DNA from: a virus
IMG/VR virus record: IMGVR_UViG_3300030693_000013
Length of the DNA: 64,000 nucleotides
Reading direction: 5' to 3' (one strand)
Part shown: one piece after another, positions 3,976 through 48,946 of the stretch
Numbering within the stretch: the first letter of the stretch is position 1
Layout: each line of letters opens with the position of its first letter
Notes under the pieces: generated by a model
What the model saw: only the letters and a program-made list of their open reading frames with translations
Database searches by the model: none
Told to the model about the DNA's origin: nothing
Made by a program: the position numbers and the translations under genes

Positions 3976-5327
3976 TGCTGCTCAGGACCGTCCAGCAAAC
4001 AGTGATCGACGTCACCCGGTACCACGTCAGCGTGGATGACTGGATGCCGGAAGACACTACGCTTGCCGGCGTTACTGCCACAGTAGATTACGGCACGGCG
4101 ATCGTGACCGGTATCCTGATCGACCGCGACAATCGTGGCTTTCACTTCTTCGTGAGCGAAGGCACTATTTTCGATCAGTTCAACATCATCTTCAGCCAGA
4201 CCGACAGCCGCGGCGGCGTGCGCTTCGATCACATGGCGTTCTCCATCGTGACGAACGGCGGCATCGTTCTTGCAGGTCCGGCGACGTCGACCCAGACACC
4301 GCTCGAATACATGCAGTCCATCCTCGGACCGACCGGATCAACCGGACCTACTGGCGTCGGCGGACCTGGGCCCACGGGCCCTCTCGGCGCGCCCACCGGC
4401 CCGACTGGCAGCACAGGACCACAGGGGTTGACGGGTTGGACGGGTTTGACGGGCTCTACCGGCCCGCAGGGATTGCAAGGGTTCACCGGCCCATCTGGCG
4501 GGACCGGATACACTGGCCCGCTAGGGACTGGACCAACCGGGGCGACCGGTGCTACAGGTCCGCTGGGAACAGGTCCAACCGGGCCGCTTGGTGGTCCCAC
4601 CGGGGGTGCTGGCGCTTCAGGTCCTACTGGCTCGACGGGTTATACCGGAGTGTCGGGGGCTACCGGAAGTTCAGGAGCAACCGGACCCACCGGGTCGCAG
4701 GGGCCATCGGGCTTCACCGGTTCGACCGGCCCAACAGGAGCATCAGGTGCAACAGGTCCCTCGGGTTTATCCCTCACAGGTCCGACCGGCCCCCTCGGGG
4801 GACCTACGGGCAGCAGTGGCCCTACGGGCAGTACAGGCTGTACGGGCGCATTCGGCACAGGGTCAACAGGCCAGCAAGGTCTGGCTGGCCCTCAAGGTAT
4901 TGCTGGACCCACCGGTGCAACCGGGCATCAAGGGGTCACTGGACCTGCTGGTTCGGCGTCGGGCGGTCGCGCGTATACTGCGATCTCTGGGGCCGTGGGC
5001 CTCTCGTCCGGTGTCTCTGCCGCCTCTACGGGGTTCTCCCTAGGCGCCGGCGCCTGGGATGTGCAGGCCGTTACGCAGTTCTCCACCGCGGCTGGTCAGT
5101 CCAAGGCCATCACGATCATGGGTGTCAGCAACACCCCTAGCGGCTTCGGGCTGGGGCTCGGCAGCTATGTGCAGCAGGAGATCGACGGCCTCGGCAACTC
5201 GGACGTCTATTCGTCACCGATGGTCCGTGTTAACGGTCCGATCACCGTCTGGTGCGTAAATTACGCGAACTTCGTCAATGCCGGCGTCACCGCAACCACT
5301 GTGTTGACCGCGCGGCCCACCTCGTGA
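3975..5327 (+). CDS. Collagen-like fibre with N-terminal adaptor-like domain
   Basis: Central G-X-T tract; N-terminus resembles 5335-5634, C-terminus ([11 protein letters not shown]) resembles that of 1855-3975. Confidence 0.8.
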
Positions 5328-11832: not shown

Positions 11833-12413
11833 TGGTCGATGGTCCGTACGGTACTGGCTTTTTAGGCCAGATTGTCAACGTGCATTTTGCGCCGGCGCTG
11901 TGGCTCGCGATCCAGTGCGGCGTCGCCGGCAACGGCACGGAGAACATTACGATCGCGCTTGGAAGTGGCCCGTCGTTCAACACTATCACGAACAGCGTCG
12001 GTTGGTCGAAGCCGGGCACTCTGCCGATCATCAAGCCCGACCCCATTATCTCTGGCTCCGGGAACACCCAGCTGTCCGGATACCTTATCGGCCGCGGGCT
12101 GCTGGTGGCGATCGGACCCAAGTTCCTGCCGTCTGGCACCCCGTTCACCATCCTCGCCAACTGCTCCAGCGGGCTTGACATGTTTGGCGACAGCGGCGCG
12201 GAAACCGTCGGTGTCAACCTCTTGGATGGCACCAAGGCGGTCCTTGCCGGGCAGGATGCGTTCAATAACCTCGTCACCGTGGACCCCGCGCAAGGCTTTC
12301 TATCAGGCGCCACGCGCACCACGAACGTGATCTCGGGCGGCTCGGTGCTTAGTTTCAATATCGACCCGGTTCACAAGACAGTTACAGGATCGGGTGGCGT
12401 CCCCGGGGCTTAA
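11832..12413 (+). CDS. Hypothetical structural protein
   Basis: TAATG-coupled in the tail operon. Confidence 0.55.
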   Translation: MVDGPYGTGFLGQIVNVHFAPALWLAIQCGVAGNGTENITIALGSGPSFNTITNSVGWSKPGTLPIIKPDPIISGSGNTQLSGYLIGRGLLVAIGPKFLPSGTPFTILANCSSGLDMFGDSGAETVGVNLLDGTKAVLAGQDAFNNLVTVDPAQGFLSGATRTTNVISGGSVLSFNIDPVHKTVTGSGGVPGA

Positions 12414-17365: not shown

Positions 17366-20300
17366 ATGGCGGACTTCGATCCGGACGAGTATCTCAGTCA
17401 GGTCGAACCAGCAGAACCATCGGACGACAGCGCCCCGCCGCAACAGGCTCAGGGCGACTTCGATCCCGATGCGTATCTTGCGGGACTGCCCGCTGACGAC
17501 AATCCGCAAGCGCCCCCGCCAGCCCCGGAAGGCATGGTCAAGACTGCAGCTCGTCGTGCCGTAGGGCGCGCCGGCGGTGTCATGGGCGGCCTCGTCGGCA
17601 TGGGTATGGGTGCAGCTGAAGGTGCGGGTGCTGGCTTGCCCGGTATCGTCGTCGGCGGTTTGATCGGCATGGGCATCGGCGCCTATGGCGGCCAGGGCAT
17701 TGAAGACGAGGCCAAAGAAGGCCTCGGTCTTGACGACAGCACCCAACAAGCTATCAATGCTGAGGCCAACCCGTGGACGTCTAACCTTACCGACGCTGCT
17801 CTGAACATCGCCGGTATGGGACCTGCTGCGGGCGCTGGCGTGGCCGTGCGCGCCGGTAGTGCGGCTCTCGGCGGTGTGTTGGAAGCCGGTGAAGAGGCAG
17901 CGTCTGGTGAAGACTTCAGCCCGACCAAGATCGCGCTTCAAGCGGCGACCAACGCCGTCTTCCCAGGCGTTAACAAGCTGGGTCAGAAGTTTGTTGGTGC
18001 CGGCGAACGTGCAAGTGCGCGCCTGGGCACTGTGCCGGGACGCCCGAACCAAGCACCCAATCCGGCCGCGGCCCAAGCGCACGCCGATGTGGGCGACACT
18101 TCAACCCAGACCGCGGTGGGCGACAGTTCTACTGCTGAGGAGCCTCCTGTCCGTACCGCTGAGACGATCGGCACCCCGCTCAGCCGGCCTACGAACTCGC
18201 AAGGTGAAGAGGCCACAGGCAAGGGCGGTGACAGCTCGTATATAAAAACGTCTCCATCTCAGGTCGATGGGGATACTGATATGTTGACAACTGGCGATAT
18301 GCCGCCAGACTGGGCGGCGGCGCTCGCGCCTGATCAAGTCGAAGTCCCCGGAATGCCGCGGCCCGAACCGCAGCAAACTAGTGCGCCTGAACAGCCACAA
18401 ACTAGTGCACCTGAACCCACGCCACAGGCAGAACCCAATGCGCAGAGTGCTCCACAACCAGCGCCAGAGCCCAAGCCAGCCGAAGCTGCGGCTCCAGCGC
18501 AGCCTGCGTTCGATCCGGACCAGTATCTGGCACAGCTCAAGCAACCCGTGGATGCCGGGTTCCCCAGGGTGGGCGAGCCTCTCGACCCGGGCGCAGGGGG
18601 TGATGGTAGCCCACGAGTTAGCCCGAATGGACGCAGACCTACTCTTACGCTTAAGTCAAATGCCCAAGAAGGTGCAGCGCCTGTCCGGAACGCTGCTCCG
18701 CGTGTCGATGAACCTGTAAGCACCAAGACCGGCAAAGCTGAACCGAACCCGAGCGATGCCCAGGTCGAGGCTGGCAACTATCAGAAGGCGCATGAGCGCG
18801 TGCTTGGGCGCGACGTCTCCTATGAAACCGAGAAGGGCGGCACCCGGCGCAGCAAGCCGGGCGAGCCACCGTGGGAAACCAACGACTTCCCGGCGGACTA
18901 CGGCCATGTGCTCGGGGTGAAGGGCGCGGACGGCGACAACCTTGACCTGTTCAACCTTCGTAACGGCGACAAGCATTACGTTATCGACCAGCGCAACCCG
19001 GAGACGGGCAAGTTCGATGAGCACAAGATCATGGCGAACGCGCGTGATCTCAACGATGCGCGTGACGCCTACACCAAGAGTTTCTCCGACGGCAGCGGCG
19101 TGTCGCGTATTCATGATATTACGCCGGCGACCGAGGGTGATCTGAAGGCGTGGATGGCGCTCGGCAACAAGAAGAAGCCCTACAGCAAGGTCCCATTCCC
19201 CCAGGCGGTGAAGCAGCCGAAGGTCGTTACTGCGGCAGTAGAAAAGCTGAAGGCGGCTGGTCAGCATGAGATCGCCGCCAAGATCATGGAGCTGCCGGAA
19301 GCCGCGCGGGTGATTGCCGCGAACAAGGCTGCGCGCGCTCTCATCAACAAGACTGGTGAGTTGAAGACCGGCGAGATCAAGAACATCCGCGTCCGCCAGC
19401 CAGCTGAGAGTGTGCCGGGTACCGACGTGCAGTCCAAGGGCCCGCGGGATGCCGCGCGCAAGTCCGGCGAGCTGAACGCACTTCGCGAAGTGTTCGACAG
19501 GCATACCCCTGTCAAGGACGAGGCCGACGCCGACACGATCGCGCGCGCCAAGGCCCTCGCCGAGGAGGCCAAGACCACCGGGCGTTATCCATTCGACATG
19601 CGCAAGAAGCAGGAGCCGGCGATGCTGGTTCGTGCCGCGCGAACACTGGCCAAGGACAAGGACGTCTCCGCGTTCCGCGCCACTGAACAACTCCTCCGAT
19701 CGGATGACCCGGCAGCGCACGAGACTGTGCGGCAGCAGCAGGCTGAGGCCAGTATCGGCCGCTCCCACCGCGCCGGCGACGAGGCTACCGATCGCGGCGA
19801 AGCGGCGATCGCTGAGCGCAACGCGGGCGTAAACACCGAAGAAGACGAGATGCATGATCGCATCGAGAGTAAACGCAATATTGAGAAGGCGTCTGATATC
19901 GACGATGACCTGAAGAAGACCCTCGACATGGACAAGCCGGCGGACCGCAAGGAGCTGGCCGCGCTGTTCAACAAGAAGGCCGAGCAGCAAGTCCCTGAGT
20001 GGAAGAAGGTGCGCGATGCCAAGCAGAAAGAGATCGCGGATCGGACGGCTGAGCTACTGGCTGCTCGCAAAGCTAAGGCTGGCGAGAGCGTTGATACACC
20101 TGTTCGTAAAATCAAGCTGAAGGACGGCACCGAAGTCACCCCCGAGGAGTTCGCCAAGATCGGCGAGGACAAGCCCCCTGTCACTCCCAAGGAGCGCTAT
20201 CAGGACGCCGCTGCCAAGTTCCTGGGCGACGAGAGCGCCTCCATGAACCCGAAGCAGATTTATGCCGACGCCAAGAAATTCCTGAAGAACACTGACAAGT

Positions 20301-22597
20301 GGCTCGAGGACCACCTCCGCACACCACACCAGCGCACGGGCCCCGAGACGTGGATGCCGCGCCGGCTGGTTGATCCGAAGGACAAATATTACAACGAGCT
20401 GAGCGACACGCTCTATGGTCGACACACCGAGCAGAAGGATCACGAAATCCAGCTGCTGAAGCACCTTGAGCAAATCTACAAGGATCAGGGCGGCCAGAAG
20501 ACGATCCTCCAGAAACTTCGTGCCGCGTTCGACGGTCGCAATCCCAAAGTGAAGGCGATGAACGACCAGCAGGAGCGTATCTATCTGGCGCGTGAAGCGA
20601 ACAAAATTCACACCTTGTCCCCCGAAGACCTCAAGGCCTATCAAGACCAGCTGGAGGGTGGCTTCCAGCAGAACGATGCCGTCAAGGCGTGGATCGATGC
20701 GCTCGACCCAAATAAGCTGGGGCCGAGCGTGCGCAACCACGTCTATCGGCTGGCCCGCGGTCCCTATGACCCGCTCAATCCGAGCGGCAAGCGCAGCATC
20801 TTCTCCGACCCGATCGGCGGCGTGAACAAGCGCCGGCTCGCCGGCAAGGCGCCGGGCACCGGCATGGATCGTACCTTCGTGGCGTTCGAGCACCCCAACG
20901 GTGCGCGCCTCGTGATCGCTCCTGAAGAGGGCAAGGGCTACACGCTCTGGGACAAGGGCACTCCGATCAAGGTCGCGGACCCGACATTCAAGTTCGAGGA
21001 TGGCAAGCAGGTCGACCTGGGTGGCCACAAATGGACCATGACCGATGCGCTGACCCCGGAGATCGAGACTAACGCCAAGGGCAGCGACGGCAAATTCATG
21101 AAGTATTATAAGAACGCCGCCGTCTCGATGGCGATGGCGAACGCGCAGCTGACCGAGACGATGCGCGGCATGCAGATGCTGCGCGATATCACTGAGGACC
21201 CGCGCTTCAAGGCCGAGAGCACCACCAACCCGAAGGACCAGCGCGTGCTGGATGGCGAGTTCGTGCGCAACCTGCTGCCCGAGACTGAGCACATCTTCAC
21301 CTCCAAGCGGATCGCGCATATTCTTGACGACTATGCCGCCCCCGGCTTCTCGGAAGAGACGTTCGAGAAGGGCCGCAACATCGGCCGGGCGCTGCTGCAG
21401 ACGCTGTTCTGGAACCCGATGATCCATCCTCAGAACATCGGCGCCCACTTCTATGCCGGCCGCGGCTGGGACAACTTCACTCCCAAGGGACTTCACATGC
21501 TGGTGAAGCACACCGGCATGGCCATTGCCGACACGATCCATCCCGGTCCCCTAACCCGTGAACTTCTGAACCACAATGCCGCGCTGATGTACACCAACGT
21601 GGCCACTGAAGACATGACAGAGAAGGTGCTCGGCAAGTTTGGCGAGTACATGGACCAGAACAAGCCGGCCTGGGACCAGATCGCCAAACGCATGGGCGTG
21701 GAGGCGAAGGATATCGGCAAAGCAGTGGTGAAGGCATCGCGTCACATCACCTGGGCCTCCAACGACGTGTTCTATAAATCTCTCTACCTTGACAACCGGG
21801 CGAAGGGTATGGACCCGCAGCACGCTGTCAACGCCACCGAGAAGGATATCCCGAATTACCGCGTGCAGCATGAGCTGTTCGGCAGTCGCGCGCTGTCGAA
21901 ATTCCAGCAGGACACCCTTGCATCCGGGTTCGGCCGTTATCACACCGGCATGATGAACGCCTTCGGCAACATTGCCGATGGGCTAGTTCACGGTGACAAG
22001 ACCGAGAAGCTGGAAGCGATGGGCAAGATCGTCGCGCTCGGCGTGCTCGGCATGATCATCAAGCCTTATCTGGACGAGAAGGCGAAATACATCACGGGCA
22101 ATCGCCATGCCGAGATGATGCCCCGCGGGCCGCTGACCCCGATCAACGAGCTGGGCAAGGCGCTCACCGGCAAGGCTGACATCATGGCGCCGGTTCGCTC
22201 CGTAGTCTCGCTGTCGCCGTTCCTCGCAGCGATGGATGAGTTTTACAAAAATAAGGACTTCGGTGGTCGTAACATCGTCGAGCCGGGCGACGTCGCCTTG
22301 GCCGCCAAGGGCTCGATGCCCGCTGCCGCGCGCGCCGCTACGCAAGCCGGGATGAATGCCGCCCGATCGGCCTTCCAGCCACTCAACCAGAGCGTTAATG
22401 CGATCCGGAACCCCCACGGCGGGCTAGGGGTGGGCCTGCGCGATCAACTTCTCGGCATCAGGAACCCGACCCCCAAGGCCGGCAAATGGGAGGACGGCGC
22501 CGAGAAAAAGGCAATCCAAACAGCAGCTTCCAGGGCCCGCGGCGGCGGTCACGATTTCGTCGAAAACTGGTTGACTAAAACCTTCGGATTTAGGTAA
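17366..22597 (+). CDS. Large ejection/polyvalent protein with inorganic pyrophosphatase-like (InPase) domain
   Basis: 1743 aa; three FDPDxYL repeats; segment EAGNYQKAH...DYGHVLGVKGADGDNLDLF...DQRNPETGKFDEHKIM. Confidence 0.7.
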   Translation: MADFDPDEYLSQVEPAEPSDDSAPPQQAQGDFDPDAYLAGLPADDNPQAPPPAPEGMVKTAARRAVGRAGGVMGGLVGMGMGAAEGAGAGLPGIVVGGLIGMGIGAYGGQGIEDEAKEGLGLDDSTQQAINAEANPWTSNLTDAALNIAGMGPAAGAGVAVRAGSAALGGVLEAGEEAASGEDFSPTKIALQAATNAVFPGVNKLGQKFVGAGERASARLGTVPGRPNQAPNPAAAQAHADVGDTSTQTAVGDSSTAEEPPVRTAETIGTPLSRPTNSQGEEATGKGGDSSYIKTSPSQVDGDTDMLTTGDMPPDWAAALAPDQVEVPGMPRPEPQQTSAPEQPQTSAPEPTPQAEPNAQSAPQPAPEPKPAEAAAPAQPAFDPDQYLAQLKQPVDAGFPRVGEPLDPGAGGDGSPRVSPNGRRPTLTLKSNAQEGAAPVRNAAPRVDEPVSTKTGKAEPNPSDAQVEAGNYQKAHERVLGRDVSYETEKGGTRRSKPGEPPWETNDFPADYGHVLGVKGADGDNLDLFNLRNGDKHYVIDQRNPETGKFDEHKIMANARDLNDARDAYTKSFSDGSGVSRIHDITPATEGDLKAWMALGNKKKPYSKVPFPQAVKQPKVVTAAVEKLKAAGQHEIAAKIMELPEAARVIAANKAARALINKTGELKTGEIKNIRVRQPAESVPGTDVQSKGPRDAARKSGELNALREVFDRHTPVKDEADADTIARAKALAEEAKTTGRYPFDMRKKQEPAMLVRAARTLAKDKDVSAFRATEQLLRSDDPAAHETVRQQQAEASIGRSHRAGDEATDRGEAAIAERNAGVNTEEDEMHDRIESKRNIEKASDIDDDLKKTLDMDKPADRKELAALFNKKAEQQVPEWKKVRDAKQKEIADRTAELLAARKAKAGESVDTPVRKIKLKDGTEVTPEEFAKIGEDKPPVTPKERYQDAAAKFLGDESASMNPKQIYADAKKFLKNTDKWLEDHLRTPHQRTGPETWMPRRLVDPKDKYYNELSDTLYGRHTEQKDHEIQLLKHLEQIYKDQGGQKTILQKLRAAFDGRNPKVKAMNDQQERIYLAREANKIHTLSPEDLKAYQDQLEGGFQQNDAVKAWIDALDPNKLGPSVRNHVYRLARGPYDPLNPSGKRSIFSDPIGGVNKRRLAGKAPGTGMDRTFVAFEHPNGARLVIAPEEGKGYTLWDKGTPIKVADPTFKFEDGKQVDLGGHKWTMTDALTPEIETNAKGSDGKFMKYYKNAAVSMAMANAQLTETMRGMQMLRDITEDPRFKAESTTNPKDQRVLDGEFVRNLLPETEHIFTSKRIAHILDDYAAPGFSEETFEKGRNIGRALLQTLFWNPMIHPQNIGAHFYAGRGWDNFTPKGLHMLVKHTGMAIADTIHPGPLTRELLNHNAALMYTNVATEDMTEKVLGKFGEYMDQNKPAWDQIAKRMGVEAKDIGKAVVKASRHITWASNDVFYKSLYLDNRAKGMDPQHAVNATEKDIPNYRVQHELFGSRALSKFQQDTLASGFGRYHTGMMNAFGNIADGLVHGDKTEKLEAMGKIVALGVLGMIIKPYLDEKAKYITGNRHAEMMPRGPLTPINELGKALTGKADIMAPVRSVVSLSPFLAAMDEFYKNKDFGGRNIVEPGDVALAAKGSMPAAARAATQAGMNAARSAFQPLNQSVNAIRNPHGGLGVGLRDQLLGIRNPTPKAGKWEDGAEKKAIQTAASRARGGGHDFVENWLTKTFGFR

Positions 22598-40722: not shown

Positions 40723-40812
40723 GATCTCTCCTCTTTGTTGGGGCTGACGGCCTTCGTCAGGTGGCGTCTCACGCCACGATGGCGCCGCGTCGGGCACGGC
40801 ACCATTTCGGCC

Positions 40813-41016
40813 TTATCGGAACAGCCAAGAAATGACGCGACAGAATGCCCAGTATCCTGTCGCCGCACCCAGCAGGATCACAGGGGCGGCCATGTCGTCT
40901 GCGGTGCGAATGCGGCCAGCATGGATCGCCGCAGCAAAAATGATCCATCCAAAGAACGCAGTCCAGCCACTGAGCATAGCCATCTTGCGGTAGGCGCCAG
41001 ATAAATTCATGTTCAA
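40813..41016 (-). CDS. Small membrane protein
   Basis: Two TM-like helices. Confidence 0.5.
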   Translation of the reverse strand: MNMNLSGAYRKMAMLSGWTAFFGWIIFAAAIHAGRIRTADDMAAPVILLGAATGYWAFCRVISWLFR

Positions 41017-41040
41017 AACCTCCGTCGGTTGGGGGTGAAG

Positions 41041-41646
41041 TTACGTCAGTCCAAGCATCTCATTAAGTGCCTGCATTTGTACAGCAGGAACTCCGATCGG
41101 CGGCGCAACAAGCGGCGGCGAGGCGAAGAACTTTTTGCCCTCGGGCCAGATGGTGACTAGCTTCTCGGTGGTGCGCACGCTCTTCAGCAGCAGCTTCAGC
41201 GTGGCTTCGGCACTGGTCTTGTCTTTCTTCAGCGTCTCGCTGTCGCCCTGCCACTGCCTGATCTCGTTGACCAGCTTCTCGTGCTTGTCGAGCGACAGTA
41301 TGCCGTAATTGTCGTAGTTGTAGTAGTTGTATGGCACAGCCACCTCGATCCGCTTGGAAAACTTGCCTTCTGCATCCTTCGCGAAATACTTTGCTTGCAG
41401 CAGCACAGTCTGCCCGGCGACGTTGATCTTCAGCTGGTTCGTCATCTTGAACCACTCGATATTGGGCCGCCCTTCAACGGCCCTGAACTTCTCGATCATG
41501 TGGCGCATTGAGAGCGGCGTCACCGCGTTGTAAGCGCGAACGAACAAGTCTTGCTCGTGCTTTTCGAGTTTGATCTGCTCGTCAATGAATTTCTTCATTG
41601 TGGCGTTGCGAATGATCTCTTGTCGGATGGCTTGATTTAACTGCAT
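41041..41646 (-). CDS. Nmad5-like (nucleotide modification associated domain 5) protein
   Basis: MQLNQAIRQEIIRNA...LLKSVRTTEKLVTIWPEG pattern. Confidence 0.6.
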   Translation of the reverse strand: MQLNQAIRQEIIRNATMKKFIDEQIKLEKHEQDLFVRAYNAVTPLSMRHMIEKFRAVEGRPNIEWFKMTNQLKINVAGQTVLLQAKYFAKDAEGKFSKRIEVAVPYNYYNYDNYGILSLDKHEKLVNEIRQWQGDSETLKKDKTSAEATLKLLLKSVRTTEKLVTIWPEGKKFFASPPLVAPPIGVPAVQMQALNEMLGLT

Positions 41647-41649
41647 GGC

Positions 41650-43695
41650 CTACCTTTCCCACACGTAGTGCGGATTGCTGAGAATGTAGCGGCCCACCAG
41701 CCGATCATGAGCAACAGCGGCGCTGGCTTTCATGATATCGAACAGTGTCCGCTCCATCGCGATGGCTTCCGCTTGTCGCGCATCGGCAGTGCCTGCCAAC
41801 GCCTTGCGGAAGTAGTTGTCGAAGATTTCCCGGTGCTCCGGGGTCAGATGCTTGCGTGTGCTCACTACGACCTCCCTGTTGGAATGGACAGCAGGATCAT
41901 CATCACGCCAAGCGTGACAATAAAGCCCTGCTGGTTGTTGAAGCCGATGTAGATCGCGAGAATGCTCGCGATCCTCACGGCGTTGTCTTGTAGGTGCCGA
42001 GACGCTTGCGCAGGCTGTCGCGGGCATTGATGATCTCAGGGCTCTTGTCCTGCGCAGTGCCGTGCGACGCACTGCCATCGATCAGCTTGTCAAGCCGCTT
42101 TACTGTGGCAGCAATGATATCGGCGGCGCTCATGTCGTCGGGCTGCGGGCGGAACAGGAACTGGTCCAGCTGGTCCTCAGGGATCAGGTGGTCGATCTTC
42201 ATTTGCGCCCTCGCATAGTTGAGGATGCAGTTCTGCGCGTCATAGAGCGTCTTGGCGACCGCAGGGTTGGCTTTGTGCTTGGCGCGGCGTGCCAGCAATT
42301 CGTTGGTGGTGTTGATCGGCTCGCCAACGCCACCCTTGGGCCATGCACCGAACCGCACCATGGCGCGGACACAGCTTGCTACCTTGCTGTGCTTCGGCGA
42401 TTTGGTATCGAGTGGCGCATTGCCGGTCGATGCCGTGACATACTCCATGGCGATCTTGCCGGCATCGTCAATGTCGGCGCCATGCTTGTTGTGCTTCAGG
42501 TCGAGCACACCCAGGTAGCTGCCCTCCAGTGTCTGGAGCATCAGCTTGGCTTGGGTATCCTTGCCCTTGCCGCTCGCTGTGCCCAGCTCACGGGCGATAG
42601 CGAGCACGTCGTCGAAACTTGGTTTGTTCGTCATATGCTTTCCTTTCAGTACGCTCTGGTGAAACGCCGCTCGGCTTTGGCGGCCGCTTGTTCGGCGCGT
42701 CGGGCACGCCGCCCGTCGCGCTGAATTTCCAGCCACACTGTATCGATCAGTGAGGCTAGCTTGTAGTTCGCATAGATCATGCCGCTCGGCGTGTGGCAAT
42801 TCCAGACGTAAGAAGCACTCGGAGGCAGATGGTTCAAGCGACTAAATTGATATCCGGGTGTCAACGCGATCTGCGCCATCATTACGCGCTGTGCGTCGCT
42901 CAACTCCGCAATGTCGATCTCTTCATCTGTCTGCATCAATCGTCTCATTATAGTAGCGCGCGATCATCATCAGCAGGACGCTCAGGCCGATCGCGAGCTG
43001 CGATACGTCGATCATATCATTGCGCGCTGTCCAATGTCTAATGGCGCCCCAGCCGACGAGCCGAAACTGCCAGCCGGCCATCACATACTGCGCCATCTGC
43101 ACGCGCTGCGCCTCGGTCAGCGCCTCAATGGTCGTTTCCTCAAGTGTGCGCAGCATCTGTCACCTTTTTTGCCCAGCTCATTGCCGTGGTCTTGCTGAAG
43201 AACCATGGGAAGCGCGATGGTCTGACCTGTTCATTCTCAGCGATATCCTTGGGCGGTAGCGCGATCCACAAGCCACGTTTGAGGTAGTGATCGTCGACGA
43301 TGGCACCGTGTATGCCCATCATCGGCAGTGACTGGCCCTCGAACACCCAGCCGCGGAGCAGCAGTGCCGCCTCCATTGTTCGCAGGTGGTTGTGCCTGCG
43401 ACACTTAACTCTTTTCGTTGGATAGCCCATCGTTGCCACCTTTTTCCTTGGCGATCGTGGTGGCGCGACGTTGCGCCACCTCCTGGAGGATCATCATTAC
43501 ACCATCGGCCATCAAGCCGCACGCCGCCATGGTGGTAATCAGCTCGCGACGCTCCGCTATCGCGTGGAGCGCCTTGCTGATCGCGCGGATTTGCGTGTTG
43601 TAGAACTCGCCATCCTCGAACGTCATTGGGGTAACACTTCGACTGCCCAGAGGATCAGCTGCAACAGCAGCCAATAGGTGATGGCAGCGCTGCAC
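41650..43695 (-). CDS. Early-region small hypothetical genes (41650-41865, 41975-42634, 42646-42948, 42923-43156, 43140-43439, 43405-43695)
   Basis: Densely packed co-oriented ORFs; several starts are uncertain. Confidence 0.45.
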
Positions 43696-43752: not shown

Positions 43753-44166
43753 TTAATCCGCATTGATCAACCTTTCTATGGTTTTGGGGGTGATATCCTC
43801 GCGCAGGTACAGCCCACGGCGCTGCAATTCTTCGCGCAAGTCCGCGAGTGAGTGCAGACCGAAGTTAGGCAAGCGCCTCAACTCTGCTGCCGACATTGAG
43901 ATTACATCGCGCAACGTGCGGCAGTTCGCGTACTTCAGGCAATTCGCAACGCGAACGCTGACTTCCATCTCATCGGCCAGCTCGTCCAGCGGGTCAACGA
44001 TTTCAGGCGGCTGCGCAGCAGCGAGCATGGCCTTGCGGAGTTTATCGTTGCGCTCAATGAGCGCGACGTTCTTCTGTGCATAGTCGATGAACAGTCGCTT
44101 GACGTTCAAATCGAGACGCTCGAACGCTAACAAGGCGTTGTCTAGCGTCGGTATATAATTGCCCAT
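43753..44166 (-). CDS. RNA polymerase alpha subunit C-terminal domain-like protein
   Basis: LDELADEMEVSVRVANCLKYANCRTLRDVISMSAAELRRLPNFGLHSLADLREEL matches the alpha-CTD helix-hairpin-helix consensus. Confidence 0.85.
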   Translation of the reverse strand: MGNYIPTLDNALLAFERLDLNVKRLFIDYAQKNVALIERNDKLRKAMLAAAQPPEIVDPLDELADEMEVSVRVANCLKYANCRTLRDVISMSAAELRRLPNFGLHSLADLREELQRRGLYLREDITPKTIERLINAD

Positions 44167-44754
44167 TACCTTGCTCCCTTGTCACCCGCACGACGGCACC
44201 AAATTGTGTGCACCTTGTCAAGTTCTTCCTGCTGGATGCGCGCCCAAACGCTCTCGTTCACTTGGTGAACGGGCATGCACAGCTCCACTTGGGGCATTTG
44301 CTCGTCCTCATCGCTAATTACTGCGGCAGTAAACGCGATCTCGCGATCGACCACCGCAATGTTCAGCGGGTTGATCTCGCCGTGGTGCGCATGGTGCCAC
44401 ACCTCGAACAAGCGTCTTGCCACATGGGCAGAAGACGCCTCAATTGTCCTTGAAACTTCGCAGTGGCTCACTCGATACATGTTCATAGCGCACTTCTCCA
44501 TCTTCCAGGGTTGCAATTAGCGTGCCATTGTCGATAGCTTCCAGCACGCACTCAAGTTCGGGCCGATAGCCGCCATCGTTGGCAGCTTTCTGCTTGCGGT
44601 GACACACCCAGCACAGCTTCAGCCCGATCTCTTTCTTGTCGGCACACAATAGACAGAAGTTCAGCTCGCGATGTTTCGTGTGCCACGCCGTGATACGATT
44701 GGTGTCGCCGGCAAATGCCGTCGGGTAATTTTGCTTGTCCTGCTTCGTCGGCAT
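44166..44754 (-). CDS. Two early hypothetical genes (44166-44516, 44440-44754)
   Basis: 44440-44754 has CxxC..CxxC (CLLC, CWVC). Confidence 0.45.
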
Positions 44755-44935
44755 ATTCAGAATGCTCCTGTCATGAGGACCAGCGTGGTCCAGAGATAGC
44801 CAGCAAGAAACGCGCCAAGCGTCGCCTGTGTCATCGTTCTACCTTGCCAGTCATGGGGCTCTCCGATTACTGTGGCAGTAAAATAACGGAATTTAACGGG
44901 TTTGGCCCAAGTTGCTGCCGATGAAAATTAACTAA

Positions 44936-45000
44936 TCAAAAAGCGGGGGAGCCAGGGTCCTAGGCGCAAGGCCATTGTGGGTCCAGCTACGGCTCCCCCT
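44936..45000 (-). terminator. Putative intrinsic terminator
   Basis: Minus strand GGGGGAGCC...GGCTCCCCC stem followed by GCTTTTT, just after the 45030-45287 stop; unusually large loop. Confidence 0.5.
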
Positions 45001-45459: not shown

Positions 45460-45930
45460 TAATTAGGTAGTGGTTTGGGGCTTCAGAAAAACAGGTTGCT
45501 TTTTGGTAATGTTAGGGGATGGAACCCGAGTACAACCTGAATGGGTCTAAATGTCTAAATGTAATGTCATTTTTTGGGTGGGTCGTATAGAGGGTCGCCC
45601 TATGGCCCGTGTACATTACAAAATTGTAACCTTTTTTTCTTGATGTTCCCGGCTCCGGCTAAGTCATTGTTTTCTTTATATATTTTAGTCCATAGTACCT
45701 TAAATCAAGAAGCTGCGCTGACATTTAGCTGCCGGGCGAAAATGACCTCAGGGGCCTTAGGGCGATTCTCTATATGCCCGACCCGAAAAAACACCTGACA
45801 TTTAGACATTTAAAAATTTTTCGGGCGAAAAGGTAACAAGATCAAACACTTGTAAATGTCAGCACACTTTCCCCGGAGGCTGACATTAACACACAACCGC
45901 CTATGAGCGTAGAAAATAAACGCATTAATT
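45460..45930. repeat. AT-rich divergent control region with iterated TAAATGTC/GACATTTA motifs
   Basis: Copies at 45548, 45556, 45562, 45720, 45797, 45805, 45853 and 45882; lies between divergent operons. Confidence 0.75.
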
Positions 45931-46372: not shown

Positions 46373-46658
46373 TAAGACAAGGCAAAGGTGGCGCGACGTT
46401 GCGCCACCGCTGCCCGACAAGGCAAAGGTGGCACCCTGACATGGTGCCACCTTCAAACCACCCGGAAAGGGCGAGACAATGAGCAAAGCGATTGTTATTT
46501 ATCTGCGCAAGCTGGAACTGCAGAAGTTCCGTAACGGCTAGAGCGAGAGCTACCCCAAGCGGGCACGAGGGTTTATCCCCCCGCCCGCTTGGACAGCCCC
46601 GCGCTCTTGGCTTCGCCAAGAGGGGGCCTGAAAATATGTAGGGGGTAAAATCCGAGCC

Positions 46659-48262: not shown

Positions 48263-48297
48263 TTGACACTCGCCCGGCGGCAGTTACTGTGGCAGTA
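48263..48297 (+). promoter_or_regulatory. Sigma70-like promoter overlapped by the palindromic site
   Basis: TTGACA (48263-48268), 16-bp spacer, TACTGT -10-like element that is the left half of TACTGTGGCAGTA (48285-48297). Confidence 0.6.
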
Positions 48298-48319
48298 ACC
48301 AACCAGAGGGAACACCCCC

Positions 48320-48946
48320 ATGCCGCTGCAGCTCGTCATCACCGAAGACCCATCCAAAGAAGTCAACATCTTCGACATCGACCCACTCGACCGGGCGCGC
48401 GCCGTCCGCCTCGCCGACGAGGGCATCCCCGTCCGCGCCATCGCGAGAGGACTTAAAGTGCCGAGCGACACTCTCTATGATGCGCTGCGCGAGGCGCTCG
48501 AGGAGGGCCGCATCTGCGAGCTGCCACGAGACGACTGGCCACCCGGGAGCGCGCGCAGCCAGCGCGCCATATATGCCGGCACCATCCTCGAGAACGAAGA
48601 CCAGCTGCAGATGATCTGCGCCCGGGTCTTCAAGACCACCAAACAACAGTCGGCAGTCGTCGCCGTCCTGATCAAGCGCCGGGAGATCACCAAGGCGCAG
48701 GTCCACATCATCCTGCAAGAGAACCGCCCCGCCTCCAACCACGCGCCCACCGACGAGAAGATGGTCGACGTGGTCATGTTTCACATCCGCAAGAAGCTGA
48801 AGGTCCACGAGGTCCCGATCGACACCATCTGGGGCACCGGCTACGCCATGCCGGCCGTGCACCGCGACCGCGCCATCAAGCTGCTAGAGGAGAACGCCAC
48901 CGCCTACGCCGCGTACCCGGGCGTCGAAACGAAGGAGGCCGCGTGA
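48320..48946 (+). CDS. Transcription regulator: N-terminal HTH + OmpR/PhoB (CtrA-like) winged-helix domain
   Basis: GIPVRAIARGLKVPSDTLY (HTH); EKMVDVVMFHIRKKL...IDTIWGTGY parallels the CtrA segment LKIIDVFICKLRKKL...IETVWGRGY. Confidence 0.8.
   Translation: MPLQLVITEDPSKEVNIFDIDPLDRARAVRLADEGIPVRAIARGLKVPSDTLYDALREALEEGRICELPRDDWPPGSARSQRAIYAGTILENEDQLQMICARVFKTTKQQSAVVAVLIKRREITKAQVHIILQENRPASNHAPTDEKMVDVVMFHIRKKLKVHEVPIDTIWGTGYAMPAVHRDRAIKLLEENATAYAAYPGVETKEAA

Follow-up and report, generated by a model that had tools for sequence, protein, structure and literature searches.

A stand-alone alpha-CTD gene in a tailed phage

The gene at positions 43753 to 44166 (minus strand) of the 64,000-nucleotide viral DNA analyzed here (the window) is an intact open reading frame (ORF) of 137 amino acids with an ATG start. 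Profile matches and structure prediction indicate that residues ~58 to 123 of its product are a true C-terminal domain of the RNA polymerase alpha subunit (alpha-CTD). We tentatively propose that the protein acts in trans and competes with the host alpha-CTD for AT-rich DNA upstream of promoters. The domain is preceded by an orphan N-terminal helix and a short Pro/acidic linker and is followed by a short C-terminal helix.

The Pfam family PF03118 matched residues 62 to 115 with 51.7 bits (curated cut-off of 23.8; E value of 7.4e-14), and all 54 sequence matches in the PDB were RpoA, the best being the Caulobacter alpha-CTD (9zum; E value of 2e-11). The AF2 model of the 137-aa protein had a mean pLDDT of 93, with values of 96 to 98 across the alpha-CTD, and its comparison with solved alpha-CTD chains by Foldseek gave TM scores of 0.90 to 0.92 (by target) and rmsd values of 0.5 to 1.1 Å. 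According to Pfam, PDB, and Foldseek, the double helix-hairpin-helix spans positions 43798 to 43983 (minus strand; residues 62 to 123), equivalent to residues ~255 to 316 of Escherichia coli RpoA. The profile match and the structure prediction agree on the alpha-CTD fold that a preliminary description of this DNA had claimed.

That description had also reported the lack of an N-terminal domain (NTD), which was borne out. In tblastn searches of the whole window with two full RpoA sequences (Salmonella and Sinorhizobium), the CTD stretch alone was matched, and no alpha-NTD (~235 amino acids) was found, in frame or elsewhere. The NCBIfam profiles for complete RpoA were not reached either (52 to 54 bits versus cut-offs of 228 to 302). 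The protein, as modeled, has the same fold as the alpha-CTD of bacterial RpoA (residues ~250 to 329; PF03118; PDB 9zum from Caulobacter and 1lb2 and 3k4g from E. coli), but it has an orphan N-terminal helix instead of the NTD and is encoded outside the rpsK/rpsD-rpoA-rplQ operon. Its neighbors are small phage genes and genes for Nmad5, AAA/vWA, and PolA proteins, on 66-kb contigs with a phage portal. The identity of the domain was 44 to 45% with alphaproteobacterial RpoA and 35 to 42% with the CTDs of beta- and gammaproteobacterial RpoA, and the GRK/GKK motif reads GLH. Judged by these values, the alpha-CTD is divergent, and its initial designation as near-consensus was too strong.

The N-terminal 52 residues form an orphan helix pair (residues 8 to 16 and 20 to 50; positions 44017 to 44145, minus strand) that was predicted by AF2 without alignment support in this region and that may be a dimerizing coiled coil. 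At residues 33 to 43, Asn33 and Asn40 occupy heptad position a, and Leu36 and Leu43 occupy position d, in resemblance to leucine-zipper dimers. This NxxLxxxNxxL pattern, chosen post hoc, occurred in 0.8% of shuffles, and the heptad hydrophobic moment of the 31-residue helix was not above that of shuffles (p of 0.08 to 0.65). The short coiled coil of the preliminary description therefore holds insofar as a long helix is predicted, whereas its heptad moment stays within the range of the shuffles; we consider a coiled coil plausible on the basis of the model. The homodimer prediction of the 137-aa protein gave no answer either way (score of 0.24 versus a mark of 0.42). Homologues of the N-terminal region were found neither among shorter proteins nor in the ESM Atlas (searched by features) nor among viral alpha-CTD copies, and the helix contains no known polymerase-binding motif.

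Gene callers predicted the identical 137-aa protein on 33 contigs, the longest of 66.4 kb, with the same neighbors in every case. Its variation consisted of one silent base among six compared loci and one Leu-to-Val replacement in a second cluster member. An assembly chimera or host contamination was ruled out because the identical gene and its neighbors are present on many independent contigs. The GC content at the three codon positions (0.59/0.35/0.70) was like that of other, core phage genes. A GGGAG ribosome-binding-like site and the overlap (TAATG) of the start codon with the stop codon of the 106-aa gene upstream (positions 44166 to 44182, minus strand) suggest that both genes are translationally coupled. 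A scan for sigma-70 promoters gave nothing above chance. The comparison of loci L001 to L006 with positions 40800 to 43200 and 46375 to 46404 of the window revealed strain-level indels in the small-gene cluster; a gene of ~225 bp between those for Nmad5 and the AAA ATPase was missing in L005, and the alpha-CTD gene was invariant across these loci.

Conservation of functional residues

Residues were audited in E. coli numbering with Salmonella RpoA as a ruler. The DNA-contact residues R265 and N268 are retained as R72 and N75 (positions 43942 to 43953, minus strand). The segment N101-F-G103-L104-H105-S106 (positions 43849 to 43866, minus strand) corresponds to N294 to S299, in which N294, G296, and S299 are retained and positions 297 and 298 are changed. 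All five minor-groove residues (R265, N268, N294, G296, and S299) are thus present, as R72, N75, N101, G103, and S106, including the equivalents of R265, N268, and G296 that had been singled out at the outset. Further retained residues are D258, E259, E261, V264, C269, L270, K271, E288, and P293. A287 and F295 are present in the alphaproteobacterial state, and K291 is present as Arg (R98). Altered positions comprise L262V, D/E273A, E286A, L290R, K/R297L, K298H, and G315R; the basic phosphate-contact residues K/R297 and K298 are thus absent (L104 and H105). The 261 determinant is present, with D65, E66, and E68 at the acidic positions 258, 259, and 261 and K78 at K271, and position 273 is Ala. 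The 287 determinant (positions 285 to 289, 315, and 317) reads S92, A93, A94, E95, L96, R122, and D124, with E286 and G315 altered.

Read from these residues, the core that reads the groove is preserved, and half of the phosphate clamp is gone. In the rrnB complex of E. coli, the minor groove is entered by R265 and N294, and phosphates are bridged by K291 and K298 (PMC7822876). In the crystal structure of the Caulobacter alpha-CTD with DNA, four key residues make the contacts, namely the counterparts of R265, N268, N294, and K298; DriD, an activator, binds through those of N294, K297, and K298 (N295, R298, and K299 in Caulobacter numbering) (PMC13004042). The replacements of K298 by His and of K/R297 by Leu were overlooked in the first reading; because of them, this copy should bind UP elements or DriD-type partners more weakly than the host alpha-CTD does.

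All 17 of the 17 core positions are hydrophobic, and the five changes at the most conserved columns all keep the residue class. Of the 27 to 28 residues shared with alphaproteobacterial rpoA, 13 to 19 use different codons, and the nucleotide identity to host rpoA is only 50 to 57%. The preservation of the hydrophobic core despite this heavy synonymous divergence indicates, at the level of sequence, that the fold is under selection. The enrichment of identities in conserved columns was borderline (p of 0.052). The net charge over positions 258 to 314 is +1, compared with -2 and -1 in host RpoA, so that the phage domain is slightly more basic.

Phage context and probable host

The window covers most of a tailed phage of ~66 kb with an SU10-type portal, a PolA polymerase, and an SNF2 helicase. 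Judged by PolA, the cultured phages most closely related to it are Rhizobium phages of the RHph_TM27A group (40.5%), and they have in common with it the order of small genes, AAA ATPase, metallopeptidase, PolA, and helicase. There are four perfect TTAA-N7-TTAA boxes, at positions 12410, 46659, 55871, and 60978, where 0.04 were expected, and the gene at positions 48320 to 48946 encodes an HTH and OmpR/CtrA-like winged-helix protein with a weak match to CtrA. This kinship, the boxes, and the CtrA-like regulator lead us to infer that the host is probably an alphaproteobacterium. A scan of ten phage proteins, mostly the largest, revealed no RNA polymerase domain, and the phage therefore probably depends on the host enzyme.

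The alpha-CTD gene lies a few genes into a leftward cluster of small genes, after an AT-rich divergent control region (AT-rich tracts at positions 45550 to 45820 and 44921 to 44944) and before the replication module. Its assignment to an early region fits this layout of a small-gene cluster ahead of the replication module, which is an agreement by position only.

None of five related phages (PolA identity of 45 to 65%) had an intact alpha-CTD gene. In one of them, IMGVR_UViG_3300050121_000032, the syntenic position (L248:1945-2067) holds half an alpha-CTD, consisting of the second helix-hairpin-helix only; this half-domain is of the PNL type, is 64% identical to Sinorhizobium RpoA over 22 amino acids, has no in-frame R265 helix, and is either a remnant or an assembly error. 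The alpha-CTD gene is thus accessory, and this genomic slot seems to gain and lose the domain.

The family of phage-encoded alpha-CTDs

IMG/VR was searched with a strict DNA pattern composed of the R265 helix and the PN[FLM]G turn. A total of 109 stretches fitted the pattern, corresponding to 56 viral representatives of 79 to 300 amino acids, none of which had an NTD. The flanks (63, including that of the query) fell into 40 families, and the flank of the query was a singleton. As the pattern forces R265, N268, C269, L270, P293, N294, and G296, the conservation of these residues across the family is by construction. At positions free of the pattern, K/R298 was present in 46 and S299 in 43 of the 56 viral copies, whereas position 287 had no dominant residue and the full acidic 261 patch was found in 14 copies. 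The better conservation of the DNA face than of the activator patches points to this face as the working surface of the family. The query is an outlier, since both basic residues at 297/298 were absent in only 2 of the 56 other viral copies, and it keeps the full acidic 261 patch, unlike most of them.

In a tree based on 62 columns, which is weak, the viral copies did not fall on one side of a branch (seven label changes, two of them forced by starred branches) but scattered among PNF-type and PNL-type RpoA. This scatter suggests repeated capture of alpha-CTDs by phages. The query paired with P0054 (support of 100/94) and P0137 (96/85). Its nearest CTD was that of P0054, with 55% identity over the 62 columns; P0054 has 278 amino acids, is encoded on a short phage-like contig, and differs from the query in its N terminus, which is HTH-like by eye. 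The tree cannot fix the donor, given that the pull of the query to the "other RpoA" set is unstarred and that the pattern used to choose this set contains the T-x-R-D motif of the query. The identity values, the PNF motif, and the kinship of the phage make the tail of a proteobacterial, namely alphaproteobacterial, rpoA the most likely source.

Such proteins, some of them from uncultured phages, are already labeled in UniProt/BFVD, examples being A0A6J5QDR9, A0A2P1JY10 (Rhodococcus phage Finch), and A0A5Q2WLP1 (Mycobacterium phage Mithril), and the ESM Atlas contains viral clusters of 110 to 127 amino acids, the same size class. Like the annotated proteins, the query is short and combines a variable N-terminal module with a single alpha-CTD and no NTD; it stands apart in its N-terminal module, which has no match in any of the 39 other flank families. 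The gene is therefore a somewhat atypical member of a widespread, annotated phage protein type and not a one-off. By itself it adds one more member, from an uncultured phage, to an already annotated family, and this type of protein is common in viral metagenomes.

A word-based homologue search returned the protein itself alone, and a direct scan of viral contigs with the 137-aa protein gave no match. The tblastn searches of cultured phages produced weak matches only, to annotated rpoA or unannotated genes. Profile searches were dominated by multi-repeat alpha-CTD proteins and RpoA fragments, and the pattern scan of metagenomes returned mostly non-proteobacterial RpoA. No functional study of a phage-encoded alpha-CTD was found in the literature searched, outside of which lay most subscription papers. 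Very many proteins in the range P0002 to P0150 contain tandem arrays of 2 to 11 alpha-CTD-like repeats; P0002, for example, has 1,031 amino acids and 11 such stretches. Short stand-alone alpha-CTD copies also occur on Planctomycete-like contigs. The Ralstonia mannitolilytica plasmid pRMAN01 carries, in a phage-like segment, a 234-aa alpha-CTD-containing gene (L013:2563-3267) that adjoins an H-NS-family gene and a DNA cytosine methyltransferase gene.

Possible functions of the phage alpha-CTD

Assembly of the alpha subunit into the polymerase requires the NTD (PMC4287176), so that a protein without it cannot be assembled and any action must be in trans. In the model that we tentatively favor, in which the protein competes with the host domain for AT-rich DNA upstream of promoters, the tail of a proteobacterial rpoA would have been captured long ago and kept as a small accessory protein, made from the leftward early/replication operon at a time that is suggested by gene position. 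Its R265/N268/N294/G296/S299 face would bind upstream of host promoters, in minor grooves that are narrow and AT-rich, and the N-terminal helix would probably help by mediating self-association. Promoters of the host that depend on contacts with the alpha-CTD would be damped, and polymerase would be freed for phage promoters. The loss of K297 and K298 may weaken or retune binding, which the new arginines at positions 290 and 291 could partly offset. The model is supported by the conserved fold and minor-groove residues, with R72, N101, and R98 at the positions of R265, N294, and K291. Also in its favor are the slightly more basic charge of the domain, the selection on the fold, the DNA face that is better kept than the activator patches across viral copies, and the probable dependence of the phage on the host enzyme. 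Counting against it are the changes of K298, one of the four key DNA contacts in Caulobacter, to His and of R297 to Leu, and the coiled-coil signal, which is not statistically significant. Oligomerization, DNA binding, an effect on transcription, and host takeover by this protein are what we infer from these features. Since the five related phages lack an intact copy, any benefit would be conditional.

Other phages are known to act on this part of the polymerase. T4 Alt and ModA modify the host alpha subunit at R265 (PMC2988021), gp67 of the Staphylococcus aureus phage G1 also targets alpha-CTD function (PMC3694059), and so, reportedly, does Rac of phage phiKMV (PMC7552054). The process presumably targeted is the same, namely the alpha-CTD-dependent use of host promoters. 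However, the three systems act on the host subunit itself, by modification, blockage, or cleavage, and have no sequence relationship with the protein described here, which copies the domain and would be a competitor; its functional likeness to them is inferred only. By analogy, these precedents make the alpha-CTD a plausible target, and they prove nothing on this gene. Competition by a free alpha-CTD copy, if true, would be a further strategy beside modifying, blocking, or cleaving the host subunit.

The main rival to the competitor model, possible though rather unlikely in our judgment, is that DNA binding has been tuned down and that the domain mainly soaks up partners of the alpha-CTD; equally uncertain candidates for these partners are sigma region 4, class I activators, NusA, and stress or defense regulators. 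Two basic DNA contacts are lost, yet the acidic 258/259/261 patch and K271 are fully kept, and a fully acidic patch is the exception among viral copies (14 of 56). In addition, the isolated alpha-CTD binds NusA-AR2 (PMC6614797) and Spx (PDB 1z3e and 3gfk) in trans. This rival is at odds with the alteration of two of the three residues contacted by DriD (N295, R298, and K299 in Caulobacter numbering; PMC13004042) and with the 287 patch, which is only partly kept (E286 to A and G315 to R). The natural replacement of GRK by GLH could serve to separate DNA binding from partner binding. We attach little likelihood to a broader synthesis in which stand-alone phage alpha-CTDs are repeatedly re-acquired trans mimics of the polymerase domain and this member is a dimeric sponge, having shed the basic residues of the phosphate clamp, for stress or anti-phage regulators that depend on the alpha-CTD in an alphaproteobacterial host, with the CtrA-like late program of the phage escaping.

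The remaining alternatives appear less probable than the binding of partners. A positive role as an adaptor, in which the N-terminal helix docks host RNA polymerase or the CtrA-like regulator (positions 48320 to 48946) and the extra alpha-CTD strengthens phage promoters, would fit the AT-rich tracts of the control region (positions 45550 to 45820 and 44921 to 44944), the winged-helix regulator, the four TTAA-N7-TTAA boxes, and the intact 261 determinant. The acidic 261 patch of the alpha-CTD faces sigma region 4. We nevertheless regard this role as improbable, as the helix has no homologue or known polymerase-binding motif and the gene is missing from related phages whose genes are laid out in the same way. 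It is still harder to credit that the protein is a substrate decoy that shields the polymerase by absorbing enzymes whose modification or cleavage of alpha occurs at R265 or close to it, and ADP-ribosyltransferases of competing phages or host defenses are just as doubtful as its targets: R265, the target of T4 Alt and ModA (PMC2988021), is kept, but DNA binding explains this retention equally well, and no ADP-ribosylation-related family was found among the neighboring genes. Least probable is that the gene has no function and is neutral cargo, either a host fragment of recent capture or one in decay. Its patchy occurrence in relatives, the half-domain at the syntenic place in one of them, and the loss of two DNA-contact residues are compatible with this; the frame, however, is intact and coupled, codon GC is phage-like, the core is kept at 17 of 17 positions at 50 to 57% nucleotide identity to host rpoA, and the sole variants seen are one silent change and one Leu-to-Val replacement.

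Other features of the window

The AT-rich divergent intergenic region at positions 45548 to 45870 contains a 64-nt inverted repeat and short iterated motifs, features of a candidate origin or control switch. An identical near-perfect hairpin of 22 nt is present at positions 43459 to 43480 and 46387 to 46408, flanking the control region, and the sequence next to both copies is similar; it could be a terminator, a processing site, or a cassette-exchange repeat.

The 15-bp palindrome TTACTG-N3-CAGTAA occurs at 20 sites between positions 4072 and 61858, within and between genes (0.05 expected), for example at positions 44318 to 44332, 44867 to 44881, and 48284 to 48298. Four of the five related phages have at least 14 to 23 copies of a sister motif, TTACCG-N3-CGGTAA, which reflects a coordinated change in both arms, and palindromes of either type were not found in more distant relatives. 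We ruled out the palindrome as the site of the alpha-CTD protein because relatives without the gene carry 14 to 21 copies of the sister motif. The palindrome resembles a binding site of some dimeric protein and has no connection with the alpha-CTD gene. The 1,743-aa protein encoded at positions 17366 to 22597 contains an inorganic pyrophosphatase domain (InPase, PF18823) at residues 464 to 597.
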